A DNA stretch of 64,000 bases from Antedon mediterranea (GCF_964355755.1 NC_092678.1:16721881-16785880); one strand, 5' to 3'; shown: positions 6,661 to 57,856, counted from the first letter of the stretch. Notes: generated by a model from the sequence alone, not told the origin. Program-made: numbers and translations.

Positions 6661-6765
6661 TTTAGTCGCGTGCAACGCGACTCTACAGCTCACTATGTCG
6701 GTCGGTTTGTTGGTCGGTCGGTCGGTTAATCGGTAAATACTAACTTGAGCACGCGACTGCAGCCA
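6661..6765 (+). mobile_element. Helentron-associated short element (HINE/DINE-like), 3'-truncated at the array junction; repeated at ~11790-11894 and ~16917-17021
   Basis: tttAGTCGCGTGC..(GGTC)n..GCACGCGACT subterminal inverted repeats. The terminal hairpin seen in the copies at 56.6-58.2 kb is missing here. Confidence 0.7.
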
Positions 6766-9682: not shown

Positions 9683-9716
<34 letters not shown>

Positions 9717-16300: not shown

Positions 16301-17485
16301 TTGTCTGGTAATAAAGTAAGGCGCTGCTGTCAGATGTAAATATAATAATATTTCTGTATAATTATTTGGCAAATTGACAAGTAGGCATACACTGATGCCC
16401 CTGTGGAAAGACAATCTCTAACTAAAGACACTGTCAGTCTGCTTGATGGGATTGAAGTAGACTCGGGACGCATTTTTTTCCCTATTAGGTTAAGGCAGAA
16501 ACTATAGAGGGCCTGATTCCATACAGGAATATTTATGATGTGACGGCAAACCATGGAAATGGTTTTCATCAAGCGGTAACCGAAAATGATCTCTCTTGAT
16601 AAACTGCTTGCACATGGCCTTTAATCAAAAGCAGTGAGTTGGTGACTTACTGTTTAAAGATTTACTGTCCCCAAAACATTTAAAAAAAATGAAATTAATA
16701 AAATCAGAGGACATTTTGTAGTTTTTTATTTCAACAATATTTATCGTACGAGTGTGTTTCATGGACCAAACTGATTATTAGGGAACGTCACAACAATATA
16801 ATTTGACATACAATAACAAGAAATATAATAGAACAAAATAAAACAAAAATAAGCGGTTAAATGAAATGAAAAAATACTATTTTTACTGTTTTTTGTTTTT
16901 TTTTTTAATTACAGTGTTTAGTCGCGTGCAACGCGACTCTACAGCTCACTATGTCGGTCGGTTTGTTGGTCGGTCGGTCGGTTAGTCGGTAAATACTAAC
17001 TTGAGCACGCGACTGCAGCCAAAATGTATTGTAGATGGAGAAGCATTCTATATACTTAAGTCTAGAGTTTACGATTTTTCTTTTTCTGTTTATAAGTTTG
17101 TTAATATGGATGATATTTCCGAAATAAAAAGAAATTAAATTGAATTGAAAGTTAGAATCATCTCCAAACGTGTGCAATTTATTAATATTATACAATCCAT
17201 GAACAAAGATAGAAAAAACATGAACCTACAAGTCGGTGTGAAGTTTATATATTGATATTGTTATAGGTTCAAATTGGTTAAATTAACTTCAACAAATAGA
17301 ATTTCATATAAAATATAAGATAACTTAAATCTATAAGTATTCAAAGTAAATAACTGTCATGTGATATCAAAATGGCATATTCAACAAAACAATTCAAAAA
17401 TCCCTTTTCAGGATGAATAAGGCTTAGTTATATATACGTTTATATTGCAAATAATACTGTTTTTATTTGTACATCACCAAAATAG

Positions 17486-22935: not shown

Positions 22936-24119
22936 AACAGATGCCTACATTATGATATTAGATATTCTAATAATATTGTTAGATATGAAAGAAAAGTTTA
23001 CTTATTCTAGACTTAAGCAAACCAGAGTAAATAACCTCTGAAATTCAATATTTTAACAATTGTTTACAGACATCTTGCGTGCGCATACGGTACGAAATTG
23101 TACAAACATTGTACAAAAAGGTGCTATTATGCACCTTTTAACTGATGTTAAACCTTATAGGGTGCCCAGTTGAACCTTTGAATTTATCATGTTAAAGGTA
23201 TTAAACTTTAATTTTCAGTTACAAGCCAGCGACTTTCTAATGTTCCGTAAAAAAAAGATTTGTTCGAATTCCGATAGCTGTCCCCACAAACCTATCTATA
23301 TTATTATTAATCTTTCTTATTTTTGTTTTAACTTACCACAATAATGTCATTCTAAAAAAATTGTCCTTATCATCACCTTTTAAGCTTTTAGAAGCCCTAA
23401 GTTAAACATATCAAGAAGCGTTCATTAATCTAATAGGTCTTATTTGTCACACAGTCACCATGGCCTACTTGGGCCTTTGCGGTGCAGTTCTGCACCTTTT
23501 TATACTTGTCTGCATTTTTCGATATAAAAGGTGCAAAAATAAACCTTTTATGAACTCTGCACCATTTTATGAGAAAAAGGCGCAAGTTAGCACCCTTTTA
23601 TAGGTTTGCATCTTTTATTGCACCTTTAGTTTTAAGTGTGTATTCTGCACTGTATGTAGTACGTATACAGTATATAGTGTATACTGTATATACTTAGACG
23701 TGACACAAAATAGAGAGCGCACTAACATTTTTTCAATGGCATAATCATTTTTCTGTGCGCAATATTCTAACGTATGACGTGCACGTGGCTTTTGCGGTGC
23801 AGATAACCCAAATCTAGTTCAATTTTTATGTTGTCTTTTTCATTAATATAACATTTACATTTATATATGACAGTAGTTTGGTGGATTGTATTAGTTTTAT
23901 GTAATATTTGATAGATAAATACTGATTATTATTATAATTAATGTTCGCTTTTCAGTAAAGATAACGTTATTAATTAGGATATTTCATATATTAATATATT
24001 GAAACATTAATCTCGACGAAAAGAAGTTTCTCGGACACGGTTTGTGAATTTCGCATGCTCCATGCCATGTTCAATATTGTCGTTTCTATGAAGCGCCAAA
24101 AGAGCAACTATGATAGAGA

Positions 24120-26337
24120 AATTACAATCAAACCCAGAAAAGTTCAGTTTTCCCCGGCCCATATCACAAGCATTTATTAAAACCTGGTGAAACTAAATTG
24201 GTTCAACTTTACGGGAAAGTGCCTTCCATCCTCAAGAATTCCGAGGTTGTATTACTATCTACAAAACATCTTACCGAGGTTAGCCCGAGCAACATGCTAG
24301 TTAAATTGCATAGAGGGAACGCTTCAATTCCCGTTACCAATAACACTACTAAACATATTTTTCTACATAAACGTCGCCCAGTTGCACATTTTGATACAAC
24401 AGACACTACCCACATTTGTCAACAACTACCTTCACTGACTGCCTCAGATAATTTTGTGCATGGTAAGACTTTCCAAGGTAAATTGCGAGAAACATAAAAT
24501 AACAACTTGCAAAAATATCCTCATCTTCAACCTGATGATTTACGGTTAGATTATACTGATATAGAAATGATTCATAATCAAATTGATCTTAAAGATAGTG
24601 ATTTAACTGAAGTTGAAAAACAACGTGTATTTAATATGTTATCTAGAAATAGACAATCCTTTAGTCTTATGGTGAATTAGGTACATGTCCTGGTTTCGAG
24701 GTAGACTTCGATCTAACAGATCACACACCGTTTTACATTAGACCTTACCCAGTCACAGAGCAGAACAAGAAGTTGATAGACACAGAGTTAACCAAATTAG
24801 TAGATTTAGGTATCCTTGCAAAAGGTCATAAGGCATATACTTCCCCAGTTTTGTTGGTTAACAAGAAAAATGGTGATGAAAAGAGAGTTGTTACAGATTT
24901 TAGATACCTGAACTCTCGAATAAAATGCCATAACCATCCTTTTCAACCATTTAGTCAAGTTATACAACACATTGGACATTGTAATCCCTCTATACTCAGT
25001 GTGATTGATATTAAAAGTGCTTTCCATAGTTTGAGTCTTAGTAAGAAATCACAGGAATATGTTGGTGTATCGTCTTATTCTGGAGGTCAGTCATACTATT
25101 ATAAACGGTTACCTCAAGGTTTAAGCTGTAGTCCTGCTAGTTTTCAATAAAAAATTACAGAAGTCATTTCCGCAATCCCTAATTCTCACCAATTTTGTGT
25201 TGCTATTCACGACGACATTCTTGTCTTTAGTCGCAGTAAAGAAGACCATTTTAATCACCTAAACTCCATATTTGCTGCACTTACAAAACAGGGATTTAAA
25301 GCATCCCCACAGAAATGTAAATTGTTTAGAAAGGAGTGTATATACCTTGGACATGTCGTCCTTATTGATAAACATAATACAGTCAGTATTAGACCTATGG
25401 CAGACAAATGTACTGCTATTCGTGAAATGCCCAACCCAAAGACTGTAAAACAGGTTAAGAGATTTATTGGTGCAGTTGGATTCTTATCATTTTTTCTTCC
25501 CAAATTACAGGAGTTGTTACAACCTTTACATTGTCTTACTAAAAAGGGTGCAAAGTTTATATGGACATCTGAACATCAAGAAGCCGTTGATAAGATTAAA
25601 TGTCTATTAGTGGAGCCACCAATTGTAATGGCCCCACAGCCGAATGGTAGATTTTCTTTATATTCAGATACGTCACGAATTGCTACGGGTTCTTATCTGA
25701 CACAAGAAATTAATGGTAAAGGACGTCTGGTTGCTTATTATTCTAAACGATTGCCACCTGCAGCAGTCAACTACTCTGTTAGTGAATTAGAACTTTTTGG
25801 TCTTCTTATCAATATCACAGGTTTTAAAAATACCCTTTTTGATAGAGAATTTGATGCTTATGTAGATCAATCTTCTTTGATTTATATCGTGATATCTAAT
25901 TCCGTCCCAGCAACATATAGATTAAGTAGGTTGCTTGAGAAATTGTCTGAATACAGTTTTACTTTGAATTATAAGAAGGGAGAAGACATTCCTTTGGCTG
26001 ATTTTCTTTCTAGAGCTCCTAGAGAAGCTGACTCAGAGATTGATAGAATTATGCCCATTTCTTTATGTGCTCAAGATGCATATCCTATCCAAGGACGTCC
26101 ATTTACACGTGCGTACGCTAAGGCACAAGGTATTCAGATTCCGCCTATACAACAACAACAACAACAAACACCTCAAATACCACCAACTTTAAAAAGTAAG
26201 CGATGTACAACAACAACAACGACAAAACGAACAGATTAATCAAAGACGTCAACAACTAAATGAACATATAAATGTTCCACAACAAACCGATCATAACACG
26301 AGACGTCGACATAATGAACATAATGTATATCAAGACG
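24120..26337 (+). mobile_element. Ty3/Gypsy LTR retrotransposon pol remnant, 5' part (RT, RNase H)
   Basis: PFYIRPYP, YTSPVLLVNK..RVVTDFRYLN, IDIKSAFHSL, RLPQGL, AIHDDIL, LYSDTS, YYSKRL..NYSVSELE, ADFLSR; contains stops and frameshifts. Confidence 0.92.
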
Positions 26338-28964
26338 TCATTTGTTTTCAATTTCATTGAGACTCTGAAGAAAGGAAACTTCAATATCAAGAAATGGCAA
26401 TCCAACGTTAGGAATATGTGTGATGAATCAGAAGACGCCACTGCTGCAACAGCTTTGGGAACAAAGTGGGACCTTGTGAACGACACTCTAAAGGTCAAAG
26501 AAGTAAAACTAATTCAAGGTCTAATCCCAACTAAACGTAGCATTCTGAAACAAACCGCTTCTTACTATGACGTATTCGGTATGCTTTCCGGTATCCTTGT
26601 CCGACCGAAAACACTGTTACAAAAACTGTGGCAACTAAACATTGATTGGGATACACCACTTAACCAGAGAAGTGAACTTTGTGCTATTCTCAGTGAAATC
26701 AATAAAGACCTTGAAAAAGCAAGTGACATAGAACTTCCAAGATGTCTTATTTCAGAGCCATTTAGAGGAAAAAGACCATTACCTAAAGTATCTCTGCATG
26801 GTGCAAGTGATGCTTCAGAAGATGCTATGGGTATCGGAGTTTGGCTAAGGTGGTCACATGAAGAATCAACTGAAGCTTATTTGTCGTTTGTGTGCGCCCG
26901 AGCCAGACTCACACCACTTAAACAATCAAGCATCCCCAGGAAAGAACTTCAAGCAATTCTGCTGCTTTTAAGGCTGATGCTCACTGTAAAGAATGCTTTG
27001 AGGTTTGACATAGTTTATTCAAAGATTTGGACAGACAGTATGACTGCCATCAGTTGGCTGAGAGGTCAATCTAAATTTTTCCGATCGTATGTTGCATACC
27101 GTGTAGGTGAGATCACTTCTGAATTTGACCCGATCAAAGATATTGCCTTTGTACCATCAGACCAGAACACTATAGATATTGTTTCAAGAGGAGAAAACAT
27201 TGACGATATGAAGCAAGTCATCGATGGACCAGGGTTCCTACCATCGCCACCAATCTCTTGGCCTAAAACTCCGACAAATGTTCAAGTAGCTCCTGAAGAT
27301 GGAGAACAAAAGAAATTCCATGTCCGTAATGCTAAGACACCCAAAATAAAGGCTATCCCTGAATTTGAAAGAACACTTGATCCCACCAAATTTTCTAGTT
27401 GGCCAAAACTTAAGATGGTCACAGCAAGAGTTGTGTCCTTAAAGCAGTTACCAAAGAACCAATGGTTAAAGAAGTTAACTTCACAAATTTCTGAGTGGCC
27501 TTCACCACATGCATTGAAGGAAGCTGAGTTGCTTTGGGTCCGACAGGGACAAGCTGAGATAAATTTCAATGATCACAACATCATGAAGCTAGTTCCAGTC
27601 TTCGATGAGAAAGAAGGAGTGTACCGTGTTGGTGGACGGATTAAGAATGCACCACTGTCGTATGACATAAGACACCCTTACCTACTACCGAAGGGAAGCA
27701 TATCAGTTTACTGATTGTTCGGGATAGACACAGACACTCTTTACATGGGGGCCACCTGAGAACCGCATCAGAGGTCAGAAAAAAGTGTTGGATTATTGGG
27801 GATACCAACATCTCAAAAACAGTTGTACAACAATGTACTATTTGTAGGAGACACAAAGGGAAGCCAATAGAGCAGAAGATGGCTGACCTACCAGACTTCC
27901 GAGTGAAACCATGCTCACCGCCATTTAGTTCCACACTCGTAGACTATCTGGGCCCAGTTAACGTAAAACTGAACAAAAATACCACCACAAAAGAATATTG
28001 TGCAGTTTTTACGTGTGCCGTAACTAGAGCTGTACACTTAATCTGTGTCCAAGATCTTACTACCCAAGCGTTCCTACAAGAAATGGAATGATTTGTAAGC
28101 ATCAGAGGAGCACCATCTTTGTTGGTGAGTGACAATGGTACATGTTTCAGAGGGGCTGACAATACAATAAGTGAGTTGAATTTGAGACTAGACCAGACGA
28201 AGATACGAGAACAATGCCAACGTTATAATGTGCAGTGGAAATTTGGACCACCAGGTGGACCTCATCACCAAGGAGCTGTTGAGCGCATGGTTCAAGAGGT
28301 GAAGAAAGGCAGGAGACATTTGGTGAAAGCTGACAGACTAACATTTGTTGAATGGGAGACGGTGTTCTGTCAGATATCTGGTCTTATCAAATAGTCGACC
28401 TCTGACGGCCAAGTCATCATCGCCTATGGATTATCCACCGTTGACTCCTAATCATTTCCTGATCGGAAGAGGTGATTTACAGTGTCCGGAAGTACCGTGT
28501 GAAGAATTCCATGGAAATTTGAGAAAACGGAGAAAAATTTGTAACTCTATGGTGAATGGTTTCTGGCACCGATGGATGGAGTGTATCCATAAGCTCTCAC
28601 CAAGACTTAAATGGCAGAAATCAATGGAGAATGTAATGGAAGGTGACATAGTGCTTGTCATTGGTGAGAACAAGAAACGTGGTAGTGGAAAATGGTAGAA
28701 GTCAGTAAAGTTTATCCAGGGAAAGATGACCTTGTTAGGATTGTTGACATAAGATTTGCAGATGGTATCTAAGAAACCGGTTAATAAGTTGATCATGCTA
28801 ATGAAGAGCACCGAACGTTCAGACATGTAGTGATATGTGGATCAGATGATGTTCCTTGACCACTGTGATTGATGATTTAAAGTGTAATTGACATTTATGA
28901 ACTTTTCATTGTTACATATAAAGTTGTAGACTTTGACCATCCGTCACTTTTTAGGGAACTGGGA
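26338..28964 (+). mobile_element. BEL/Pao LTR retrotransposon internal remnant (RT end, RNase H/Pao A17 region, integrase, DUF5641-like tail) nested in Gypsy
   Basis: KKWQSN, LGTKWD, TKRSIL..YDVFG, LHGASDAS, SIPRKEL, WTDS, DYLGP, FTCAVTRAVHL, SDNGT, PLTPNHFLIGR; PPT-like tttttagggaactggga just before the LTR. Confidence 0.92.
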
Positions 28965-29402
28965 TGTCATTACTTCATTTGTTTTCAATTTGTGAGTTGC
29001 GTGCCAGTGCGCGTACAATACGCAGGCTGAACGAAATCATATACAATTTGGTATCGTGTGAGAGATATTCATGCAGTGTAATCATCTTTATTTGTTATTT
29101 GAAACCCTTTGGATGAGTTTTAATTATTATTGTTTATTAATATGTTTAGCCAGGAGTCTGCAGGGGCAGTCTTTGAGTTGTGTACACCTTTAAATATTAT
29201 ATATTTTATTGTTGTTAAAGTTCATATATCTAGGCCTCGCTTGACGTTATCACTTCGTTTAAGTCGAGTCGGCGTACGAGTGTCTACGTCTTTCTATTAC
29301 TATAGAGGGGGTAGTCGTACTATTCTTTATTATCATATGTTTCGAAGTATTTGTTGACTACAGAACTATCTACTTAGTGTATTTTGTTTGTTCTTATAGA
29401 CA
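28965..29402 (+). repeat. 3' LTR of the BEL/Pao element (~438 bp)
   Basis: Follows the PPT, begins TGTC and ends GACA; Gypsy coding sequence resumes immediately after. Confidence 0.75.
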
Positions 29403-30907
29403 ACCCAACACAGTTGTTGAATAATAAATCTAATAAAGACAACACATTGCAACAACGTGTTCACCTCATTATTTCTCACCGATTCCACAACAATGTACAA
29501 AGACAAACCGAACAGAACACACTACATCGCCAACAGATAGTGACAAACAATCAATACGTACAACAATCAAAACAAAATCGAAACACCAATTTCCCTCCTC
29601 AGAAAGAGCCACGCATAGTTGATAGGCCTATACATCTCCCTACTCCTAATCCTTCAGTAATTGAACAGTTAGTTCTTTCTTCTACTACACCTCCAATTAT
29701 TGAACATCAGCATGATCACCCTAGCTTAGAGGATGTACAAGATTCACATCCATTGCTGGACAACGTTGAGATGATCATCTGTAGCCACATTCCAAATCAG
29801 GCACGATTAGATAAAATGATGAAACTGATTAAACGAAAGATCCTAAGAGACTTTAATCTTCCTTTTACTACACAACAATTTGCAATGGATCAACAGACTT
29901 CTTCATTATATAAACCTATATATGATTTATATCCAACAACATTCTACCCAGTGATAAAAAGACAGCTCGATCTATTACATTGCGTGCAGAACAGTATATC
30001 GTCTGTAATAATCTGATATTTCGTTTGTTTTTCCTACGTGATGATAGTTTTATATTACAGCTCGCAATTCCAGAATCGTACATCGATAAAATAATTTGTC
30101 TTTACCATGATTCTTTATTAGGATTTTTAGGTTATGCCCGCACATATTTAACGATGCGTAAACTTTTTTTTCTTTCCATCGATGTTCGAAAGGATTACTA
30201 TCTACATTCGTTCGTGTTCTAGATGCCAACAGATAAAGAATAAGCCTAAAACTCTTAGGTTGTATAACGATAGGATTCCTGGACAATTTGTTCCCTTTGA
30301 AACGCTTAGTATGGATTTTAAATCTATGCCCACTTCTCCATCAGGGTATAAGCATATAATGGTAGTATGTTGTTCTATGACTAGATATTTGATATGTGTA
30401 CCATTGCAAAGAATCGATGCCGAAACCATTTGTGAGGCACTCATTCAGAAAGTGTTTACTGTATTTGGTATTCCCACAACCCTAATTACCGATGCCGGTT
30501 CGTCATTAGTCGGAAAATTGATGACATGACTTTCTGAATCTTTAGGCATTGATCACAAAGTGATTAGCGTAGAAAATCATGGATCTCTACAGGTTAAACG
30601 TCATATTGGTTCACTTGCAAATCTCATAAAGGCCAATTTAGGTCAAATGGGAAATGATTGGGTTCGTTATGTTTCTGTAGCCCAATATGCATATAATTCC
30701 TTTAGCTCTCCTCAATTAGGTGGATATTCTCCATACTATTTACTATTCTTACGAGAACCAATGAATCTTTCAGGCGTGAAATGTCAACCAATGTCAGGTT
30801 TATGTAGTTCATACAGAGAATACATAGAACAACTCGAAGAACGCGTTAAGCATGTGTCGACTTCAATGGCTCAGTTGCAGAAGTATCAACAGCATGCTCT
30901 TGCTTAA
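29403..30907 (+). mobile_element. Gypsy pol remnant, 3' part (Q/P-rich linker, integrase)
   Basis: YHDSLLG..CSRCQ zinc finger remnant, LSMDFKSMP, FGIPTTLITDAG, YAYNS..YSPYYLLF; frameshifted; no LTR seen. Confidence 0.88.
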
Positions 30908-40791: not shown

Positions 40792-42140
40792 CTGCCCAAA
40801 AAAACAAATATGTATACTATACACACATTCACATGAACAGGTCAATCAAACAAACCATGAATCTAACGATTGATGACATTATGCTGTTGGGTTTTATGGG
40901 GCTTTTTTATTGTATCTATTTATTTACTGAACAAAAATGTTGTTGGGACGAAGGTAAGTTAGAACCTTTGGCCCAATGGCACTATATGAACCATCTCGGT
41001 GTTACGTGGCATGTCTTTTAAAAAAAACACCATAATATTAAATAAATAACCAAAAATTATGAAAATATAACGAATACATAATATGAAAGTAGTACTGACC
41101 ATTATGACTGCAAAGTTTGTTAAATGGTCACAGAAGCAGACGATACTATCGTCTGATGTTGTGTTGTAGTAACAGCCTTCGTTAGACCAATCACCATGTC
41201 CGTTTTGCAATGTAAAATCCCAGAAAACACACTCAGCGTAATCAAGTTCATCCTGTGTTAAATACAAATATAGTTATGCTTTCTTTTAAATAATTTCACG
41301 ATAAAACAATGATCATATATTACCAAAGAAGAAAACAATATTGGTAAAATATGTCTCACTAAAACTCAAATTTATCATCATTTTAACATGATATAATATA
41401 TATTTATCTTTGCTATGTTAAATGTGGATGAAATCACACTTTAAGATCATCAAACGCCTAGATGGGGGTACGTGTATCTTATAGTATGTCAATGTCCATT
41501 TCTTCTGAGCGTGAACATAATCACTGGGTCACCTAGTTCTTACCTCAACTGGTAAATATTTGAATTTGATCGGTTCTCGCAGACCTTTTACTATAACCTT
41601 TTCAACTGTAGCCGAAATTATAAGACTTCCAATCCGGCTGTCGTTAATCAATTTCAGACGATTAGATGTAAATAACTTAGACGTTCCATAGACAATGAAG
41701 CTCACTTGAGTCTTGTTTAAACCGGTTTGATTTTGACTTAATTCAACAATTTCAGGAGGTAAAAAGACTGATGCCTCCGTCTTAAAAGTGCCCAATTCTT
41801 CTTTATATGTGTGAATATTCTTTTTTTGAAAACCGGTTCCAGAAGTATCATCAATCAAATATCCAATGCCATTCCTTAATTCATCAGGAAGATACTGTTT
41901 GGTATGCACAGCTATATTCTTCTCAACCGCTTCGTAGTCTGAGAGTGATGCTAGCTGAGCTTCAAGCGACCGTATGATACTGGAAGTTGAAGCTATGTCT
42001 GTTAAAAACAACTCATCATCAACATTCTGTAGGTTACTCACAATATTGACTGTAAAGTCGGTTACCTGAAAAATAAATGATATAATATAATAACTAAATT
42101 GTCATGTTTTCCCTACTCTAACTTAATTCTGTCCTTTACA

Positions 42141-42182
<42 letters not shown>

Positions 42183-45100
42183 GAACTCGAATGGTAACTA
42201 ATCCTTCTATACAAAGATAAATTGGGTCATCCAAAATATATTGTGATATTTGTTTCTTGAAATATTATATTCATAATAAAAACACCTAAACAATACAATC
42301 TAAATCTGCAGGACAGAAGCAGTAAAGTGAATGACAGAGCGGTTAAGAAAGTACAACACTAATACAGTCATACTAAGAGGCAAGGGTTTGACGCTCACTC
42401 ACTCGATCCCTGATTCACAGTCATGCGTTTGTGTGACCATGACTATTTTAACTTATCAATACATAGAACATAACATGCAATTAGATAGAAGCAGTTAGAT
42501 CACTCAGTTAATTGACAAAATACATAACAAGTTATAAGAAAGAAATTTACTCTTTCATTCCCAGCGCCTACGTCAGTTAAACATTTAAGAATCAAGGCAA
42601 TGGCACCAATAGTAACTTCTTTTTCTCCGTTATATTCACCGGTAATTATTGATAACTGCCAAGCAACAGCTTCTGCATTTTCTTTAGTTACGTTTACCTA
42701 AAAAATCCAAGAAAGTTATAATTTATCAATGGTAGTTTCATTATATTATAATGAAGGAAAATAAATGACATACGGTAAATCTAGGATACAACAAATCAAT
42801 TGAAGAAAATTAATTAAACATTAAAGCATAGACATTTAATTATAATTACATATTTACGAAGAGATTAAGTAGTATTGTATTTTTAATGCAAAATAATGAC
42901 ATGACAGAGAAAGAAAGTATGTTTCACTTATAAATAAAACTTATCTGAAACTGTGTGCATAATTATAATGAAATAGCATTAAGATTAACTTTGGTTGTGG
43001 GTACAAGCTTACCTCTTCCAACTCAGTAATGTTATATTTTTTGAAAGGTTGAAACTCAGAAATTACAGCAAAGTTTGTTAAATGATTACAAAAGCAGACG
43101 ATCCGATCATCTGATGTTGTGTTGTAGTAACAGCCTTCGTTAGACCAATCACCATGTCCGTTTTGCAATGTAAAGTCCCAGAAAACACACTTGTGGTTAC
43201 CAATTTTTCCTTCCTATATTGAATACAATCATATACATTATGTAATATTAATCTGTTTTACGCAAGTCACAATAAAAATACACACAATAAGAAAATTCAA
43301 CTTTTATTACGGCGCGTCTCGATGTTCAACTAACACTATGTGCATGCCTATTTTTTGGAGTGTTTACTTACCACAACCGGTAAATATGCTGCTCTAATCG
43401 GTTCTTTTAAACCTTCAACTGTGACGTTTTCAACTGTAGCAGAAATTACTAGGCTTCCAACTACTCTGTCTTTATTTAACATCAGACGATTGGATTGAAA
43501 TAACTTTGATGTCCGATAAACTATGAATCTCACTTGGATCTTGTTTGAGCCCGTCTGATTCCGACTTAAATCAATAATATCAGGAGGCAGAAATATTGAC
43601 GTGTCTATCTTCCTGGTTATCAAGGCTTCCGCTTCGTGAAATGTGTGAATTTTTGTACCTTCAAAATCGGTGGCAGACGTGTTATTTATAAAATATCCAA
43701 TACCCTTGTTTAATTCATCAGGAAGATACAGTTTGGTATGCACAGCTATATTTTTCTCAACCGCTTCATAGTCTGGCATTGATGCTAGCTGAGCTTCAAG
43801 TGACCGTATTATCCCAGAAGCACCAGCTGTACTTAGACTATCTGTTGAAAATAGTTCCTCATCAGCATTTTGTATGTTACTCACAACTCTTAAAGTTGCG
43901 TTGGTTACCTACAAATTCGAGATGTAAAATTACGATTACTATTTCCTAATATTTTCAACGAATTGTAAGCTTGGTTTCCACTACGATGCAAGTTAAAGAC
44001 GTACCGTAAGCCGCAAGTAATTAGACTAATCACGAAGCGATGTATGACGATTATCCATCACCTAAAAATGTGCGTTGCTCTTACATTACGGTATACTTCA
44101 TTGCATTGCGTCTTATTGGGAATCAAGCTTTAACGTGTTTCCCTATTATTCAACATTTTTATTGCCATGGCATCAAACTTTATGACAAAACAATATGATG
44201 TGCCCATATGGACACAATGACATTTAATCACTATTATATTTGTACTTATGTGGCCAAACATGATGGTATTTATTTACAAAGATTAGTTAAGCATTTAAAG
44301 AAAATAATTCTGTATCGTGAATAATCATCAACCAATTATGTATATAAATGACTCAAAGTTAGATAAAACAATATCTAACAATATATATAATACATATAGT
44401 TGAAATTACTTACTAGTTTATTTCCCGGGCTTACGTTAGTTAAATCTTCTAGAATCAAGGCAACGTCATCAATATTAGCTATGTTGTGTATATTTTCTTC
44501 ACTAGTAACGGTTGACAAATGTGTGGCAATCGCTTCAGCATTTTCTTCAATCACATTTATCTAAAACAAATGCAAACAATCTTTTAGTATTATCGATAGA
44601 TAGAATACGGCGACTACAAAACTACGCGGTTCGGTCTCGCACCAATAGATTATTTTTATAAACAAAAGAGAGTCATAAAAAAGCTTATAATTCCTTTTCA
44701 TAAATAAGATAGAAAGGTTCAATTCAATTCTAAAAAATGGTAACACTATAACTATGTACCTATTACATATGATGCGATACGGACATTTATGTTAAGGTAA
44801 TGGACTTCTAGGCCTATCTAAATATAATAATCTTTATTGTCTTTCTTTCTTGTTTGTTCTTTTGCACATACATAAAATCAAAACTAAAGACAAAAGACCA
44901 AAGAAAAAGCTTTCGCTTATCAAGTTTTGGCCTTTTAAAATAAATAACTAGAACGTATATCATTGCTGAGAAATAAAAATCTGAAGAAAATTAATTACAT
45001 AAATGAAAATTAATAACTCACTGGCACTATCAATATGAATATGAAATAAGTAATAGAAGAATATTATACACATTTTTTTGTTTGTTTTTTAAATAGAAAA

Positions 45101-46623
45101 AACTAGAAAAAAAAACTAAAAAAAACTAAGCATCATATAAGGTTATTAAATGTTCTTTGACTTTGATGGCAAATTGTGTTCTAAATGAAATTGACTTAAT
45201 ATTTACTGGGAGTTTATTCCAGAGTTTGGGACCTTGGTATGTTATATTGGTTTGAGATAGAGTCGTACGGCAAAAGGGGATCAAGAGATTAAACGGGTCA
45301 TTAAATCGGCTGTTAAATGGATGGTTTACATAGGTAAAGTATAGTATAATATGATGAGGTAATCTAGAATAAAATAAATCGGAAACAAATTTAAGCACAT
45401 GCAACTCATACAATTTAAACACATCTAAAATCAACAATTGCTTAAACAAATGTATAGAATGTGCTCTAAAATCAGAAAACGTAACACAGCGAACGAACAT
45501 CTTTTGAATAAGTAGAACTTGGTTTAAGTAACTTAAATGTGTACTTCCCCATACTTCAATACCATAGGTAATTAGTGTTAAAATAAATGATTTATAAATT
45601 AAGATCTGAGCTTGCCGATACTACATATGATGCGATATGGAATTGTACGTTAAGGTAATGGACTTGTAAGCCCATCTAAGCTTGCCGGTAATGGACTTGT
45701 AGGCCTATCTGAGCTGGCCGATAATGGACTTGTAGACCTATCTGAGATTGCCGGTAATGGACCTGTAGGCCTATCAGAGCTTGCCAATAATGGACTTGTA
45801 GGCCTATCTGAGCTTGCCGATAATGGACTTGTAGGCCTATCTGAGCTTGCCGGTAATGGACTTATAGGCCTATCTGAGCTTGCCGATACTTGACTCACTG
45901 CCTTATAATCTTGTGGTTTGTTACCTTCATTTATTTAAAAAAAATCATTTTATTCATTTGAAAAAAAACACTTTCAAGTGGATTACCCAATATAAAATAA
46001 ACAAAATTCATTACGTAGCAAAAAACATAGGCCTAATATATTATCCTACCTCTGCTAATTCATCAATGGTGTAGTTTCCGCATAGTTTTACTGTAATTGC
46101 TCCCCAGATTCCTACTGCTCCAAGTAGATTGCGATTACACTTTCGCTCTGCTAATGAACCTAATAAGAAATATGCATGATAATATTTGATATATTATATA
46201 ACACCTAAATAATTTCTGTCATTATTACTGGACGATTGTTCGTCATATGGCGTAGACTTATTTTATTGTGTACGAAGAAAAAAAAACATCTCGCGTACTA
46301 AAAAAAAAATCTGCGTGCGGAAATCCAATAACAGCACTGTCTGTTCGATTGGAAGCAGTGACGCTCATGGCGGGTTTCTCATTCACAAAAACAAGATCTG
46401 AATAATGTCGATGAAAATGACAAAATATATTTGGATATTAAATAAAATAAGTAATGAATAAACGGTAAAAATAATGTCATGAGATGAAATATATAATTCT
46501 TGTTTCACTGGGCTTCGCCTCGAGTAAATACTATTTAATCTTTCACCTCATAAAATTATTGGTATTGTCGCACTCATAAACATTCATTATTTGTATATTT
46601 TTATGAACTAATGTGACAGATTA

Positions 46624-46654
<31 letters not shown>

Positions 46655-49600
46655 TTTCCTCATCTTTATCGTTTCAAATTAATTAATTAAATTTCAGTAT
46701 ATCACCGGGCGGTTTAGAATTAATGTTCATTGCCTGATGTGTTTATATATATAAAAGTATCTCTTCGGAGATCCCGCCTCGTGAATAAAAATACTGAAAG
46801 ATGAGGGCGTATCAATTTAATCTCTGGTGCGCGTGCGTACAACTGAGGACTAGGTTGGGGCGACTTTTTCTCATTCTCACAGATTTCCTCATCTTTATCG
46901 TTTCAAATTAATTAATTAAATTTCAGTATATCACCGGGCGATTTAGAATTAATGTTCATTGCCTGATGTGTTTATATATATAAAAATATCTCTTCGGAGA
47001 TCCCGCCTCGTGAATAAAAATACTGAAAGATGAGGGCGTATCAATTTGGTCTCTGGTGCGCGTGCGTACAACTGAGGACTAGTGCTGTTCCACCGTACCG
47101 CGCCGAGAATGTTAAAGAGTCGCTATCCAATCGAGTTTGAACAATACCATGAAAGCCCCAGTGGTCTAATGGTTAGGACATCTGCATATCAAGCAGACGG
47201 TCCGAGTTCGAGTCTCGGTTGAGGCGACATTTTCTCATTCTCACAGATTTCCTCATCTTTATCGTTTCAAATTATATATATATATATATATATGTCTCAT
47301 CAGACAAAGATACCCCTATACCAGGAAGCCCTTAAAGAAAGCGGATATTATCCTCAACTTGAATTCAATGCTGAACAGCAGAAGCCCAACAACTCGCGTA
47401 CCAGAAACATAATTTGGTTTAACCCACCATTCAGCAAAAACGTAGCAACCAACATCGGCCACAAGTTTTTAGCTATAGTAGAAGATTGTTTTCCTGCCGG
47501 CAACAAGCTCAGAAAAAATATTTAACAGAAATACCTTGAAACTAAGCTACAGTTGCTGGTCGTACGAAACAAATTTGTAGTGATTAAAACAATGACGTAA
47601 CCAAGTTTTCTGCTGTTATTTTAGTTATTTATTTATGCTCTACCTTGGTATTGAGCGATGGCAAATGGAGCGACAATACTCGCAAAGAAAAAGAAAACCA
47701 CTGGGAATTACTACTTAAAACCACACAACCTTTTGGACTTAACATTAGGAACATACTCCCAGATCGGTAAAATTATTCCATTGACTACCAAAATTTAAGT
47801 TTCAATATTAACCACCATTTAAGCTGTTTTTTAGTCTCATTCCAAAATTGTTTATATCTCTACCAAGCTACCTTCTTTGTTTTCTACTCTTATTCAGACT
47901 CCACCCTGGCTCCCTTTGTTATATTTCTTATATTCCTGTCCACCCAGGCAGCACTTGCCAGCTTTATACTATGACGTTATCCAAACTCCTTCACTTGCAC
48001 TGATGAAGGGCTAGTGTTGCCCGAAAGCTCTGCTAACTTTTCTGGCTGTTTACTTTATCGTTTTGATTTAGCTTTTCGCTTTTTATTTTTGTATCTCCAT
48101 TGAGATCCAGCCACTGATACCCACAGCATTGTCATTTTTTTCAGTAATTTGCCTTTGGATTTATATATATAATTAAATTATACTGTGATGCTTGGAACAC
48201 TGAAATACTGTATACTTTTAATAACTATGTACAATAACTACCACAATATTATAGTATCCAAAGACTAGGAAGTTCTAAAGAGGTTTGAAAAATAGCATAC
48301 ATAACAATGTTATTGAACTTACTGTTATCTATACCACACAATTCTATAGAACTCGCTAACATTTCCAACGATGTATATTCAAATGTATAGTTTACATCTT
48401 CAACCATTACAACATCATGTGGGCAACCATCTAAAAGAAAATATTATATAAAAACATTGAATTAATAATCAATAACAATATGAAGATGATTAAGATTACA
48501 GGTAATATTATGAAATAATATAAAATACAGATTTATATATAAAATAAAGATTTATATTTAAAATCAACGCTAAAGCCCGATTGTTGTTAAAACATCATGA
48601 TTGTATCTTTCAGTGAATTGTACACATTTGCTGTATTTACCGGACGCTGTAAAAACTTCACGCCTAATATAATCATTTATATAAATATTATTTATGTTAT
48701 CTGGGGTCTCTTCCTGGTTTTCTGAGACAACCCCATTTCATCATTGTGATTGCACATCTAATTATTTGATTTGACCGGTAAACGAGCCTTGCTCTTATGG
48801 TCATCCATACCAGCATTTGTTATTTATTTGTATTGAACTTGATATGGCAAAATAAATTGATATTGATAGTGATAAATAAATACATATAGGTAAAGCAGTG
48901 CGTATACATATCCTTTACCAACATTATAATCCATAATATGACATTGAATAAGAAATTAACCTTTTTATAAATAAGACTACCGGTTAGTTCAGTCGACTGA
49001 GCGGCGTGTTAACACGAATGCCATCAGTTCGAGTCACACGCAGGTCTGGTGGAATAGAGTTAAAGTATGCGAGCTACTGTGTTTGGGGTTTACATAATTA
49101 TACGTCCCCATTTCCACCACACATCATGAGGCAGCAACATCAATACATCTGGAAACGATCCCAAGGCTGGGACAGGGTCTTAGTGCTGAGGCAAGTCAAC
49201 TAACAGGACACTGAGATCTCCTTGTCGTTACTGTCTTTGATATTATGTCTGGTTTTGACAAATTCCAACAGTACAGTATGTACATTTTCTCCGCGGCTCG
49301 CGGTATCTGTTAAAGGGGCCTGGAACTGATCGTCAGAGCTCAGTATCCTGTTTTTAGATTGCACCGGAGTCAAAATGCCCTGTATAACTTTGGTTTCTTT
49401 AAAAAACTTACCAGTACACAACCTATATCTCTACCAACGTCACGTACGAAATCAGTATCACATTCACACGAGTGGGTAGAAATTGGATCATAACACACCC
49501 CATTTGCAGATTTATACAAGTAACAATAGTAATAATAATAATTAAATACACCAGGTTTCACAAACAGTATCGACAACTTTAAAATGTAAAAGGAAAACAT

Positions 49601-52600
49601 TGATGTCACATTAGATATTTAAATTCGACACATAATCTACGAAAGTTTACGAAACTATGCTTCGTTATAGAAAACCATTTACATTTTTAACATAGTCCTA
49701 CTGTACACATGAATTTTTTCAGTCAAAGAGAGCATTTATCGAAACGTAATAATAGTGGGTTTGTCAACATGCTGCTTATGATTAATTTTAAATGCAAGGG
49801 ATTTAGGTGACATAGTATTTCACTATGCCGATAAAATGGTTTTGGGACTTAATGACACAACATTTGCCCTTTTAACTCCTCAAAATGAGTTAACTTAAAC
49901 AGTCATTGTAATCGTTAAAATCACAAGAATATAACCATACACCTAACAATCTAATTTACAATCTAAATTAAAACAATTTTCATAAGTGCAACGTCTATCC
50001 TCGACGAAAACCGCGGTTGTTACGTCGCACTTTGTAATAATTGTCGCACTTTGTAATAATTGTCGCACATTGTAATACCTGTTGGCTTTGTAACGAAGTT
50101 GTCGCACATTGTAATACCTGTTGGCTTTGTAACGAAGTTGTCGCACTTTGTAATACCTGTTGCACTTTGTAATACAAGTTGTCGCACTTTGTAATAACCG
50201 ACCTGTCGCACTTTGTAATAACCGTCTGTCACACTTTTTAATAAACGGAGCTGTCTCATTTTGTAACACATGCTTGTCACACTTTGTAATAAATTTTGTT
50301 CAGGGTTTTACAACTATATCAATGAGTTATTTTTTTTCTTTAGTAAATCTGATAATACAATGAAGGCCATATATATATATACGATATATACGATATAAAC
50401 AGCATTACACGCGTACATCGTAACGCGAGAATTTCATTCTATGCGCATACGCACTTTTATCGAACATAATTTAAACCAAACCAAATCATACATACAACGA
50501 TAAGACATCAACCGATTCAGTTCAAAACCAGTTTAAGGTAAACATTTTAAATTTAAATAAATTTATGTTTCTATCCACTCTACCATTTTCATATAAAGAT
50601 ATTGTGGAACCACGTCAGGTCAAGTTCAATATTGAATATCGAAACGTGGCAGGCTGAAGGCGCTTGACCTTTGACAAGATCGCCTACATTTTTAATATAT
50701 TAACTTTACAATACTTAGTTTTGTATATTCTGGTACAGCCGCTCCATAATCTCTTTGCTTTTCTTCCTTACATCTATATTTTTAATTTAGGCCTATACTC
50801 AGAAATATCTTTTTTATTAATATAATAATAATAATATATCAAAAATTTATTAAATAATATTCATCGCATAATATGCAATCTACGATAATTTAATTAATTG
50901 ATATAACAAATAGGTCTATATTAAATACATTACATCATTGGAATAAAAAGAACAAATCACATATCTACACATAATCATAACATCGTATACTCTATCTCTA
51001 ACAATTTATTCAATCTTCTATCGACTAAAGCCGAAGTATAGTCGTTATCTCGGGACCGTTCTATGGCCACCACCAGGTAGGCTTACTTCATTAAGGCTTC
51101 TATGAATGGATGTACTGGTTGGGAGCAGGAACGCTAGTAGACCAAACCCAGTACCGTTTTGATTACGATCAATCGGGAAATTACCTCATGACGTAATACT
51201 GTAGTCAAATACGAGTGACTTAATATCACACAACACCACTTGATTTTGTTTACTACATAAATATTAAACCAATGATTTACATAAACATAACCCTGTAATA
51301 CAAGTAGTACTGGTATATGACTTTAACCTTGTGAAATATCGTGCACGTGCTCAACATATAACAAAGATTGATTTGAACAACAGAGGCATATATAACCAAA
51401 TCGTTAAATGCGCACTGTAACCAATAGTGCTGAATGAAGTCAAAGAGTTAAATGTACACTGTAACCAATAGTGCTGAATGAAGTCAAAGAGTTAAATGCG
51501 CACTGTAACCAATAGTGCTGAATGAAGTCAAAGAGTTAAATGTGCACTGTAACCAATAGTGCTGAATGAAGTCAAAGAGTTAAATGTGCACTGTAACCAA
51601 TAGTGCTGAATGAAGTCAAATAGTTAAATGCGCACTGTAAACAATAGTGATAAATGAATACAAAGAGTTAATTGCGCATTTGAACCAGTAGTGTTGAATG
51701 AAGTCAAAGAGTTAAATGTGCACTGTAAATAATAGTGCTGAATGAAGACAAAGAGTTAAATGTGCACTGTAACCAATAGTGCTTGCTTGATACTTGCTTG
51801 ATGTTATGGGTCGGTTAGAAAGCTAAATATAGCTTATATGACCCTTCCTGTCTTCTTATGACTCCGGGCTCCGGGTGTACACATAATGTTCCAAAGTGTT
51901 TATAAATGTGAAAAGGTAAACTTGCAGTCAAGGGACTTCCAATGATCATTGAGGAGTGACTTGAACAGATTTAAATTTGGAGCTTTTACAACATTAGATG
52001 GTAAGTTATTCCACGAGTCCACAACTCTACAACTAAAGGAAAACTTCCTGGAATTAAGCCTAAACTTGTTTTTATATAGCTTGTATTCATGACCTCTAGT
52101 TCTATGACAATCAACAAATGTAAACAACTTTCTGCATTCTATAGCGTCAAGACCATTTATAATTCTGAAGATTTGGATCATATCCACTCTTAATCGTCTG
52201 TACTCCAGTGTAGGTAAACCCAAAAACTTCAATCTATACGGATATGCCAAATGTTTTATTTCTGACAATGATTTGGTAGCTCTTCGTTGAACTGAGTCGA
52301 TTTTCTTAATCAGTCCAATTTGATGAGGTGCCCAGACACAGCAAGATAGGGCGGACTAAAAATATGTATAGACTAAGAAACATATCCTTATCGTTGTAAC
52401 AAAAAGTCCTTTTGATGAGACCCACTATTTTATTTGCCTTAGCAACACAGCAATTTTTATGATAATCAAAGTTCAATTTATGATCAAAGTATACTCCGAT
52501 ATCCTTTTCTATAGCAGTCTCTTCAATTTTAACTTTATCTTGTACATTTACAAAATACTCATTCTTCTCATTTGTTTTCCCAATATACAACATCTTGGAC

Positions 52601-55600: not shown

Positions 55601-57856
55601 TGTGACAACTTTTATTAAAAAGTGCGACAGGTATTACAAAGTGCGACAACTTTGTTACAAAGTGCGACAGGTATTACAATGTGCGACAATTATTACAAAG
55701 TGCGACGCAACACGCGGTACATTTTGTAGTAAAATTTACAGGGTTAAGATTACGTAATTTCACATCATTTCGAGACATAGAGTCATAATTATAATAGTAT
55801 AGTAAATAATTAACTGTGAAAGAATCTTTCATCTGTGTACCGGTGCAGTTCCTGTTACATTTTCATCGACTCATTTTAAATAAACGAGACTCATATGAAC
55901 TTTCTGTCTCTATACATTTGAAGCACGAATAGATTCCAAGATATATGTATGAATAATGTTATACCTCCTTAGCCCGATTTTCGGAAACGGAGAAAAGAAT
56001 TGCGTCCTAGTTCGTCTTACAAATTGTTTTTGTCTTAAAATGGTTTACTACTGAATGTGCGACCAACCGTAATAAATTAGATTAAAGGTAACTTTTATGG
56101 AATGTTATTTAGTGTTTCATTAGTACCCACATCCATCGATCCATTTGAGAGAAAATCTATAATTATAGTGTTATTATGCATGAGTAACTTCATTTAAAAT
56201 ACAATATAGAAAATCTACCTTTTAAAATGTATAAGTCTCCTGGAGAATTAAGTCGACTATCGTTACTTTCCTTTGATGATATTCCAGTTGTTCTATCAAC
56301 TCGATATATACCTTTCCACTCTGTCCAGTACAGATAGTTTCCATAAATAGCAATTCTATACGGGTCATCCAGCTCATTTATAATCGTTCTTCTGTTAGTT
56401 CCATCAAGGTTAGATTCTTCAATTAGGTCAGTTCCAAAATCACACCAATACATTTTTCCATCTTATAGTGAAAACAATGAGAGAACTATACATAAGTACA
56501 TTTAAATAATGGTAATAATGGTACAGTTGAATACCGACATCATGTATTGCACGGTGACCTCTATTCATTTATATTTGAACAAGGCCATATACATGGCTGC
56601 AGTCGCGTGCTCAAGTTTGTGTTTAAGCGCGCGTACGCATGCGATATATGCGCTACGCACGTAATTGTATTGTCATATATGACAATACAATTTATGAGTA
56701 CCAAATTTTATTTAATTGTGATTCATGCTTGTGGAGATATGATTACAAACGTGATTTCGTAAAATCGTGCGTAGACCGCGTAATTTTTGATTGCGCACTG
56801 TGAAAAACATAACCACATCGAGTCCTGGCCATAAGGAATATACTCCGAAAAATTGACTTAGCTAGATGAAACTGATATCAAGACAAGGCCATATACAAGT
56901 TAGTGTTTACCGACCGACCAACCGACCGACCGACTAACCGACCGTTTGACCAACCGATCGACATAGTGAACTGTAGAGTCGCGTTGCACGCAACTCAAAA
57001 TACAAGAAACCTTTTGTGGTCACTGATTCTGACAATGTAATCACTGGTGAAAACGTTGTTGGTTCTGCACTTGTTGTTACTGGTGCTGATGGGTCAAGTA
57101 TTGATTGAAACGTTGGTAATGCATCTGTCGTATGTAATAAAGCGCGTTTATTATCACCATTATATATCAATTTTTCGTTTCAGTTTTGTTTTTTAGATGT
57201 TCGAAATTCGGTATATAATTTGTGACTCAGCTTACTATGACGGTTGGTCGGTCGGGATCGTTCGGTAAACACTAACTCAATTTTTCGCACGCGACTGCCA
57301 TGTATATGGCCTTGTTATCGATATATTTAATCAGGCCTTTAGTTATCTCTGGTGCTTAAAGTTTTGTTAATTGATCTTAACTTCATAATTGAGGCGCACA
57401 CACAGATACTTGCCAGAAGCTGGATCAACTACTGTCGTTACGGTTTCTGTTGTGGTAGAAATTTCTGTAAAATAACATTTATGATAACAAAATGTGAATA
57501 CAATTATATGCAAACTTCATGCATTTAAAATAAGTTAATCTTGGTTTGGTAGAGTTTTGATACAGATGTATTTACCATTTTAGGTAACTTAAGTGTATCG
57601 ATTTGAATAAATTTACCTAATTCATAATGATCATAAGGATTCCCAATATAATCTGTCTTCAAGCCACCGATCATATCCTTATTTTTATTGCTTATATCAC
57701 ACTTAAATTGTGTTTTGTAATAATCAAAAGATCGACAAACAAACGATGTTTCTTCAATACAGCGTTTAGCACATTCTTCTGGGTTAACATTGTGTAAGTG
57801 GACATTGTTATGACCACTTATTGCAGAGTCTGGATATCTTGTAAATTTGGACAAAT
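38768..57856 (-). CDS. ADGRG-like adhesion GPCR with tandem GAIN/GPS domains (multi-exon; 5' end not seen)
   Basis: Exons in transcription order: 57856-57617, 57464-57414, 57124-57011, 56461-56219, 48430-48323, 46159-46050, 44560-44414, 43908-43372, 43213-43013, 42697-42551, 42065-41544, 41252-41100, 40791-40667, 40346-40084, 39834-39765, 39221-38768. Splice phases are mutually compatible and no in-frame stop was found. Confidence 0.85.
41100..42697 (-). CDS. Membrane-proximal GAIN domain (exons 42697-42551, 42065-41544) and GPS exon (41252-41100)
   Basis: Exons of 147, 522 and 153 nt, all phase 0. FLPPEI..SFIVY..LF..IGSLIISA; CVFWDF..WSNEGC..CFCDHL|TNFAVIM. Confidence 0.92.
43013..44560 (-). 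CDS. Membrane-distal GAIN domain (exons 44560-44414, 43908-43372) and GPS exon (43213-43013)
   Basis: Exons of 147, 537 and 201 nt, all phase 0 with GT-AG. CVFWDF..WSNEGC..CFCNHL|TNFAVISEFQPFKKYNITELEE|gtaagc. Confidence 0.9.
44821..45602 (-). mobile_element. 5'-truncated CR1/L2-group LINE inserted into a minisatellite unit
   Basis: YGIEVWGS..QKMFVRCV..HLFKQL..YQGPKLWNKLP; the flanks rejoin as ggcctATCT/ATCTgagcttgcc. Confidence 0.75.
45653..45890. repeat. 33-bp minisatellite, ~7 copies
   Basis: ggtaatggacttgtaggcctatctgagcttgcc tandem. Confidence 0.9.
46050..48430 (-). CDS. HormR (HRM)-like domain exons of the adhesion GPCR (48430-48323, 46159-46050)
   Basis: GCPHDV..YTFEYT..C / SLAERKCNRN..GIWG....LCGNYTIDELAE; phases 1-1 and 1-0. 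Confidence 0.8.
46195..46598. mobile_element. Possible non-autonomous Crypton-like interspersed element
   Basis: atataacacctaaataa start, ggcttcgcc hairpin and ...cattatttgtatat end resemble such families; no TSD. Pattern recognition only. Confidence 0.3.
46651..47272 (+). repeat. tRNA-containing tandem repeat (229-bp deleted unit + 364-bp unit + terminal redundancy) between (TA)n tracts
   Basis: cagatttcctcatctttatcgtttcaaatt recurs at 46651, 46880 and 47244. Confidence 0.85.
47155..47226 (+). tRNA. tRNA-like gene with anticodon ATC (Asp-type), probably repeat-borne
   Basis: 72-nt cloverleaf: GCCCCAG/TTGAGGC acceptor (one mismatch), D arm, TCTGC-atATCaa-GCAGA, CCGAG-ttcgagt-CTCGG, G discriminator, TTTT downstream. 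Confidence 0.7.
47292..48165 (+). mobile_element. Penelope-like element fragments with pseudo-LTR
   Basis: YQEALKESGY..RNIIWFNPPFSKNVATNIG..FNRNTLKLSYSC, then RKEKENHWELLLKTTQPFGLN (GIY-YIG C-terminus), a hammerhead motif, and TA-repeat flanks. Confidence 0.8.
47995..48035 (+). ncRNA. Minimal type I hammerhead ribozyme of the Penelope pseudo-LTR
   Basis: gca-CTGATGA-a-gggc(tagtgtt)gccc-GAAA-gc-TC-tgc: catalytic boxes, stem II, short stem I and palindromic stem III. Confidence 0.7.
48980..49110 (+). mobile_element. Decayed tRNA-derived SINE head
   Basis: ggttagttcagtcg A-box-like and agttcgagtc B-box-like motifs at tRNA spacing. Confidence 0.35.
49412..49510 (-). pseudogene. EGF-like exon relic of the adhesion GPCR
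   Basis: SANGVCYDPISTHSCECDTDF..GCVL|gtaagt; no upstream AG, first cysteines missing, and it ends in phase 0 while the next exon starts in phase 1. Confidence 0.55.
51403..51783. repeat. 44-bp minisatellite, ~8.7 copies
   Basis: gttaaatgcgcactgtaaccaatagtgctgaatgaagtcaaaga tandem, abutting the CR1 tail. Confidence 0.9.
51781..55560 (-). mobile_element. Near full-length, disrupted CR1-clade LINE (PHD ORF1; APE + RT ORF2)
   Basis: ORF1 CRTC..CESCNVWVHLSC..WMCDGC; ORF2 YRSPS, TGDFN, SDHAV, NYRPVSLT, DFQKAFD, GVPQGSVLGP, FADDT, WNNLP; (tcaagcaagta)n-like tail; APE start deleted. Confidence 0.93.
56219..56461 (-). CDS. LDLR class B (YWTD) exon of the adhesion GPCR
   Basis: GKMYWCDFGTDLIEESNLDGTNRRTI..PYRIAIYGNYLYWTEW; 243 nt, phase 1-1, AG/GT. 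Confidence 0.8.
57011..57464 (-). CDS. Ser/Thr/Pro-rich stalk exons (57464-57414 with GC donor; 57124-57011)
   Basis: ISTTTETVTTVVDPAS|gcaagt and ALPTFQSILDPSAPVTTSAEPTTFSPVITLSESVTTK|gtttct; both phase 1-1. Confidence 0.6.
57617..57856 (-). CDS. PAN/Apple domain exon
   Basis: FTRYPDSAISGHN..EECAKRCIEETSFVCRSFDY..CDIS..YDHYEL|gtaaat; the expected acceptor reads tgtAT instead of tgtAG. Confidence 0.75.

Follow-up and report, generated by a model that had tools for sequence, protein, structure and literature searches.

Introduction

Adhesion G protein-coupled receptors (GPCRs) usually have one GAIN domain. A member of this family, ADGRF5 (Ig-Hepta), is said, from work by Abe in 2002, to be cut at two sites, SEA and GPS. 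Here, we describe a locus of the crinoid Antedon mediterranea that lies in a stretch of 64,000 nucleotides (nt), analysed as a whole and called the window below (GCF_964355755.1, NC_092678.1:16721881-16785880; positions are counted from its first letter). The locus is one adhesion GPCR gene on the minus strand, which encodes a HormR-like domain, two GAIN domains in tandem and then a single seven-transmembrane (7TM) domain.

Several published results bear on such an arrangement. The GAIN domain is treated as a single element just outside the membrane, and the tethered agonist, or Stachel, has the consensus TxFxxLM (PMC13197933). Cleavage-competent GAIN domains are marked by a Phe stacked onto the catalytic His and by a Gly that precedes a conserved Cys (PMC13062082). 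A folded spacer between the ectodomain and the membrane anchor drops the cleavage of ADGRE2 from 45% to 10%, and other receptors behave similarly (PMC12488864). PIDD1, with the order ZU5-ZU5-UPA, undergoes two His-X-Ser self-cleavages, giving three fragments in sequence (PMC9162469). No description of tandem GAIN domains was found in the accessible literature (most subscription papers lie outside it), including the available parts of PMC13197933, PMC12716839, PMC4302439 and PMC11697300. Such proteins may still be present, without comment, among the 14,435 domains of PMC11697300 or in the architecture lists of InterPro.

Results

One receptor gene with two complete GAIN domains

The GAIN modules are encoded on the minus strand by two sets of three exons. 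All six exons are in phase 0, have AG/GT ends and lengths divisible by 3, and are free of stops. The distal set consists of A1 (44414..44560, 147 nt, assigned to the subdomain A helices from the structure model), B1 (43372..43908, 537 nt, subdomains A and B) and the GPS exon C1 (43013..43213, 201 nt; Pfam GPS, E 1.4e-17). The proximal set consists of A2 (42551..42697, 147 nt), B2 (41544..42065, 522 nt) and the GPS exon C2 (41100..41252, 153 nt; Pfam GPS, E 1.6e-17), which carries the full tethered agonist TNFAVIM. A 315-nt intron with GT..AG ends (42698..43012) separates the modules, and no transmembrane segment or 7TM domain was found between them. After C2, four exons on the same strand (40791-40667, 40346-40084, 39834-39765 and 39221-38768, the last with the stop) encode complete TM1-7 and the C-terminal tail in an open frame. 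Pfam 7tm_2 matches two of these exons, and 215 of 302 columns are identical to a single-GAIN paralogue, XP_071960614.1 (P0002).

The GAIN domain of P0002 has 282 positions, of which one module covers 2-281 and the other, the proximal one, covers 1-282. The TM1 exon comes next, placing this GAIN domain directly before TM1. Pfam GAIN matches in the B exons are weak and below threshold, as is a match of B1 to GPR128_GAIN_subdom_B. The full-length matches to P0002, the lack of a 7TM domain between the modules and the complete one after them agree with the original prediction, made from the sequence alone, of one receptor with two complete GAIN domains. That prediction also held that a three-exon module occurs twice. 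Two A/B/C sets are present, but the distal GPS exon is not a simple copy: it is chimeric and carries the 3' end of exon A0, which encodes part of the HormR-like domain and the first GAIN helix.

The tandem is present in assembled contigs and is spliced through

One 217-nt contig from run X1, at a depth of 4.4, joins 43013 to 42697 and skips exactly the 315-nt intron, with 47 letters on its short side and mismatches of 1/170 and 1/47 on the two sides. X1 is a second sample whose RNA nature is only guessed and which also contains unspliced contigs; none of its contigs covers B1, B2 or the TM1 exon and, thus, X1 is silent on other junctions. The same junction is used in the RefSeq model XP_071959919.1 (P0001), an Antedon mediterranea protein with a generic "G6-like" name that matches exon B2 at 100% and already joins both GAIN domains. 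The junction proposed in the original prediction is therefore real. In the DNA runs X2, X3 and X5, which are from one sample, a single contig spans 42188/42285 to 43112-43139 and so links the distal GPS exon to the second module; the duplication is not missing from these runs.

The tandem GAIN is real, and a double-GAIN transcript is very probably made. An assembly or annotation artefact might be suspected because the RefSeq model is otherwise faulty, with its TM1-3 exons dropped and its start in a repeat. However, the copies are only 75% identical in DNA, their introns cannot be aligned, DNA contigs bridge them and the spliced junction exists, which makes an artefact highly improbable. Another possible explanation is that the doubled exons chiefly yield alternative single-GAIN isoforms (A0 to A2, B1 to C2, A1 to B2 or C1 to TM1), with the double form being minor. 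In favour of this, all exons are in phase 0 and the four skips tested are all stop-free. Read-through is nevertheless the sole junction observed, and C1 lacks a donor where a GPS exon normally has the one that leads to TM1. In addition, the sole RefSeq protein listed includes both modules, and all six full RefSeq isoforms of a doubled cod gene, described below, keep both GAIN domains. We consider predominance of single-GAIN isoforms quite unlikely.

Origin of the two copies and constraint on them

The modules are identical at 185 of 282 aligned residues (66%) and 75% of nucleotides, with 23 of 49 residues shared between A1 and A2 and 115 of 174 between B1 and B2. Alignment scores for the three intron pairs are no better than for shuffles. 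In a tree of 16 rows, the modules are sisters (100/99) that adjoin Antedon P0002, outside the Anneissia relatives. These nearest crinoid relatives, P0002 and Anneissia P0004-P0006, have one GPS each.

The tandem may have arisen by internal duplication or by the fusion of two paralogues. Its breakpoint can be read from C1, which encodes the distal GPS, the strand TNFAVIS, a linker and helix 1 of the proximal GAIN domain. Its last 27 nt are identical at 19 positions to the end of exon A0 (46050..46159, minus strand, AG/GT ends), the second HormR-like exon, which also encodes helix 1 of the distal GAIN domain (residues 128-133 in the model). The C1 tail can be aligned to the P0002 linker between HormR and GAIN, and in this tail Phe has replaced the last HormR Cys. 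Since C1 is a chimera of a GPS exon and the end of A0, the breakpoint lies inside exons. The duplicated unit would start within A0 and end immediately ahead of the GPS exon donor. Through such a breakpoint, the proximal GAIN domain would have acquired helix 1, and the distal GPS exon would have lost the donor that belonged to it, along with the last Met. With that donor lost, the distal GPS would be forced to read on into the second GAIN domain.

For the module pair, the nonsynonymous (dN) and synonymous (dS) divergences are 0.23 and 0.63, and dN/dS is 0.36 (bootstrap 0.25-0.50), which is not near 1. Counts of unique changes, copy against copy, are 31 vs 33, 26 vs 26, 22 vs 29 and 27 vs 24 with four outgroups, and neither module is faster against any of the four. 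When the distal module was drifted neutrally in simulation, 34, 3 and 1 per 1000 replicates stayed stop-free at 0.1, 0.2 and 0.3 changes per site, respectively. The GPS exons have the lowest dN of the module exons (0.09) and share a 65-nt identical run (~43178-43113 and ~41217-41152) despite the overall dS of 0.63; gene conversion is a possible cause of this run. Taken at the sequence level, these data support constraint on both copies, as the original prediction had proposed, and equal rates of change in the two.

In X2, the summed contig depth, which is not a measure of copy number, is ~155 for 42.2-43.6 kb and 310-370 for 41.2-42.2 kb, and it mostly reaches 700-1300 in the last 7TM exons. 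This pattern may reflect additional, near-identical copies of the 3' part, or a haplotype that lacks the distal module (hemizygosity). It also bears on another reading, in which two older paralogues were joined into a chimeric locus that may be polymorphic, and no function of the doubled form as such is under selection. Along with the drop in depth over the distal module, variant letters of the 7TM exons occur at multiples of ~150 in X2, suggesting extra 3' copies, and the dS of 0.63 could predate a fusion. Yet the junction recurs in X1, the other sample, with few mismatches, and the copied last HormR Cys, which would be unpaired, is now Phe, so changes came after joining. Moreover, a close parent is missing from RefSeq: identity to the nearest paralogue is 59% across the GAIN domain, and the cluster has one member. 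A chimera of this kind appears improbable.

Predicted cleavage sites and the tethered agonist

Both modules have a GPS with His-Leu-Thr (HL/T, the slash marking the cleavage point), four Cys and two Trp, as seen with Pfam and by alignment to 6v55 and ADGRL3. The triad of C1 is encoded at 43084-43082 (H), 43081-43079 (L) and 43078-43076 (T), and in C2 the H is at 41126-41124 and the T at 41120-41118, all on the minus strand. The helper Phe (S10.49, before W) and the Gly before Cys S12.50, positions assigned by alignment to solved receptors, are present in both modules. The motif census and the alignment thus confirm that both predicted cleavage sites are intact in sequence, helper residues included. 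The modules have 7 and 6 N-glycan sequons.

The proximal strand, TNFAVIM, fits the agonist consensus; among 179 relatives (pattern-matched single-GPS proteins), Ile is found at +6 in 16 and Met at +7 in 103. The distal strand, TNFAVIS, has Ser at +7, a residue found there in 1 of these 179 relatives, whereas 177 have a hydrophobic one. The Met would have been lost at the duplication breakpoint, which cuts the strand. The distal GPS site is also 289 residues further from TM1 than the proximal site, with a whole GAIN domain in between. The distal copy, therefore, lacks what characterizes a functional Stachel, namely TxFxxLM within reach of the 7TM pocket, and it is not close to the endoplasmic reticulum (ER) membrane during synthesis. 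The original prediction of an intact distal Stachel that could serve as a second working agonist is not supported in that form, with the strand altered and chained to the second GAIN domain.

The strongest form of that prediction is that both sites are fully cut, giving three pieces, serial release and a second active Stachel on the middle fragment. Both GPS sites are canonical, and PIDD1 is a precedent for tandem related domains that self-cleave twice in one chain (PMC9162469). Against this, the distal strand has no Met at +7 and a whole GAIN domain behind it, the distal strand of the doubled Colossoma protein described below likewise lacks a hydrophobic end, and the spacer data predict weak distal cleavage (PMC12488864). 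We regard this form as rather improbable.

Structure models

In the AlphaFold2 model, residues 61-410 have predicted local distance difference test (pLDDT) values of mostly 79-97. The distal GAIN domain is modelled at a pLDDT of ~90, with a helical subdomain A and, as subdomain B, a beta-sandwich whose final strand is that of the GPS. Residues 125-406 match latrophilin-1 4dlq (VIA Z 23.2, root-mean-square deviation (rmsd) 2.9 over 251 residues) and GPR110 8hc0 (VIA Z 23.4). The best match, obtained with the HormR part included, is to Gpr126 6v55 (Z 27.7, rmsd 10.7), and VIA Z values are 20-28 for seven GAIN structures. The distal copy is, thus, predicted to have the GAIN fold. For residues 419-705, model 1 has no meaning, because relatives were aligned on the distal GAIN domain and their transmembrane helices were mis-registered over the proximal one. 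Model 2, from a 6-sequence alignment, gives the proximal GAIN domain the same helix/strand order at a pLDDT of only ~25-65; the identity of this domain is strong at the sequence level, given its full-length match to P0002. A search of the ESM Atlas returned generic GPS clusters only. Of the Pfam and AlphaFold checks suggested with the original prediction, those of the GPS in both C exons and of the distal fold turned out as expected, but the GAIN hidden Markov model matched weakly and the proximal domain was modelled poorly.

Other double-GAIN gene models

We examined 311 distinct hits, drawn from three overlapping sets (the best 120 of 618, 70 of 70 and the best 150 of 5229). The hits were ranked by a double-GAIN query and, therefore, the counts that follow give no frequency. 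A GPS profile derived from the first of these sets gave two matches in 10 of the 311, and five of those 10 have two GAIN domains and one 7TM domain: the Antedon protein, two Patiria miniata proteins (XP_038050910.1 and XP_038050907.1), Gadus morhua ADGRG4 (XP_030223940.1) and a Colossoma macropomum protein (XP_036450341.1). The cod doubling is also present in the ADGRG4 models of G. chalcogrammus (XP_056456393-5.1) and in 6/6 full RefSeq isoforms. The doublings in Patiria, Gadus and Colossoma are known from gene models only. P0122, P0124 and P0323 were rejected as double-GAIN receptors, as they repeat GAIN-7TM twice and are probable fused gene models, and P0300 and P0306 were rejected as double-GPS proteins, as each has a single GPS motif split by an insert.

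In a further tree, also of 16 rows, the approximately unbiased (AU) test rejected one clade for the four distal copies (p 4e-46) and for all eight copies (p 6e-119). By these sequences, the doublings in Antedon, Patiria, Gadus and Colossoma are independent. The search for relatives with a double GPS that the original prediction called for, thus, found single domains in the nearest crinoids and separate doublings elsewhere.

Two side observations concern these proteins. The Patiria genes P0123 and P0206 are neighbours with HA/T at all four sites, and the duplication is older than the gene pair. In gadid ADGRG4 (P0136 and P0192-P0196), the duplicated unit seems to include SEA, HormR and GAIN, and the distal copy of G. 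chalcogrammus has lost the helper Phe.

Remaining exons of the gene and other features of the window

XP_071959919.1 lacks two intact exons (40791-40084, minus strand) coding TM1 to TM4, and as a result its 7tm_2 match is limited to profile positions 127-250. The skip apparently runs through a 7-nt micro-exon at 40666-40660. The first 60 residues of the protein derive from a repeat at 50259-50080, and the head exons upstream are ignored.

A more plausible 5' part than the repeat start is formed by PAN, stalk, YWTD and HormR-like exons, all on the minus strand. The first HormR-like exon (48323..48430) is present in the RefSeq protein and has a pLDDT of ~80-94 in the model (residues 61-125); the HormR-like region aligns with Gpr126 6v55. 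The PAN/apple-domain exon (57617..57837; Pfam PAN_1, E 9.5e-13), with its donor at 57617 and an acceptor that is uncertain among several candidates, is likely the N-terminal head of the receptor gene. Two predicted stalk exons rich in Ser/Thr, at 57464-57414 (where the donor is GC) and 57124-57011, chain in frame and stop-free into the YWTD, HormR and GAIN exons and are candidate parts of the gene. The YWTD (LDL-receptor class B) exon (56219..56461; Pfam Ldl_recept_b, E 4.4e-8) would be part of a beta-propeller, is in frame with the chain and is 60% identical to the Antedon adhesion GPCR P0141. Together, the PAN, Ser/Thr and partial YWTD exons (57887-56219) are probably the receptor's true N-terminal head. 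An EGF-like open reading frame (ORF) at 49412-49618 had no Pfam match and was left out of the gene model.

Upstream of the HormR exon, at 54600-51900 (minus strand), are decayed reverse transcriptase ORFs, which are presumably LINE-type. On the plus strand, ORFs made of pol pieces occur at 24117-30907 around the stretch 26272-28698; we take the pieces to be Gypsy-like and the stretch BEL/Pao-like. At 1800-19800, also on the plus strand, a 5.13-kb tandem array repeats a rhodopsin-family 7TM exon (2036-3106, 7164-8234 and 12293-13363), which we assume to be of the relaxin/LGR receptor type. Repeat blocks shared within the array are mostly 97-100% identical, and a fourth copy (17583-18164, continuing at 19030-19434) is split by an insertion of ~0.9 kb.

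Discussion

The reading that we favour, although at a little under an even chance, is that the proximal GAIN domain is an ordinary self-cleaving switch and that the distal one folds, cuts partly and acts as a silent break-away joint. The proximal GAIN domain would be a membrane spacer for the distal one. Spacers lower GAIN cleavage (PMC12488864) and, thus, we infer strong proximal and partial distal cleavage; complete double cleavage is doubtful because of the distance of the distal site from the ER membrane. In molecules cut at both sites, two joints would stand in series under pull. Were the distal joint to rupture, the adhesive head would be lost and the receptor relieved of its load, with the proximal GAIN domain still covering the real Stachel, so that no signal would follow. 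Rupture of the proximal joint would release the whole ectodomain and switch on the 7TM domain. A molecule with an uncut distal site would be a normal receptor on a longer stalk. As long as the proximal GAIN domain is folded, the distal strand would be out of reach of the 7TM pocket in cis.

Another possible explanation is that the distal GAIN domain folds yet stays uncut, serving as a rigid spacer or binding surface in a normal two-piece adhesion GPCR. The lowering of cleavage by membrane distance (PMC12488864) would favour this, as would ADGRB2, which bears HLS and resists cleavage, indicating that the triad is insufficient (PMC13062082). The loss of the helper Phe from the distal copy of Gadus chalcogrammus and the HA/T of both Patiria copies point the same way, and the 65-nt identical GPS run could reflect gene conversion rather than selection for catalysis. 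On the other hand, the distal copy of Antedon retains all known cleavage determinants, dN between the copies is lowest in the GPS exons, and spaced GAIN domains are still ~10% cleaved (PMC12488864). We therefore consider an uncut distal domain unlikely.

Several points weigh against the break-away joint. Support for the junction comes from one low-depth contig of a run with guessed RNA status and unspliced contigs, and single-GAIN isoforms may dominate, since all four module-skipping junctions tested keep the frame without stops. DNA contigs over 42.2-43.6 kb (42241-43564) sum to about half the depth that they reach over 41.2-42.2 kb, the adjacent stretch with B2. Neither the proximal GAIN domain nor the arrangement of the two domains was modelled with confidence, and a pairwise dN/dS cannot separate selection on a doubled gene from selection on two parents before a fusion. 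Finally, cleavage can occur in isolated HormR-GAIN ectodomains that lack a membrane anchor (PMC13062082) and, thus, the distal site may cleave fully.

The broader proposal is that serial GAIN domains have at least four independent origins and that the Antedon receptor truly consists of three pieces with two joints that force can break, a silent outer fuse and an inner joint that fires. We hold this as possible but, on balance, unlikely. If it were true, the ratio of the two rupture forces would set a mechanical threshold. Two near-identical canonical GAIN domains at different distances from the membrane provide a built-in control for whether cleavage needs membrane proximity, and the same receptor bears on whether ectodomain release can be separated from activation by the tethered agonist. 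That the design arose repeatedly, in a crinoid, in a starfish and in two lineages of fishes, suggests that it is either tolerated or useful, and cod ADGRG4 offers a vertebrate test system.

Comparison with known systems

Judged by the gene models, the doubled GAIN is a recurrent variant within the adhesion GPCR family and is not unique to Antedon. In the Patiria and Colossoma models, the two GAIN domains abut, as in Antedon, with two GPS and one 7TM domain. The Patiria genes have HA/T at both sites of each gene, unlike the HL/T of Antedon. The cod protein also differs from that of Antedon, having a longer repeat unit with 215 residues between GAIN domains that are 88-94% identical.

PIDD1 resembles the Antedon receptor in its tandem of related beta-domains, and the ZU5 structure 4d8o is a weak fold match (Z 7.3); unlike the receptor, it is a cytoplasmic death-domain scaffold with no tethered agonist. 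The second site of ADGRF5/Ig-Hepta is a SEA module and not a second GAIN domain with its own strand. The closest likeness is to the ADGRG-like class B2 receptors (Gpr126/ADGRG6 6v55, XP_071960614.1 and Anneissia P0004-P0006), which have the same order of HormR-like, GAIN and 7tm_2 domains and are 52-60% identical over the GAIN domain. They share the HL/T GPS, the helper Phe and Gly, and a TxFxx[LI]M agonist before TM1. The Antedon receptor differs from these relatives in having a second full GAIN domain inserted between the HormR domain and the juxtamembrane GAIN domain.

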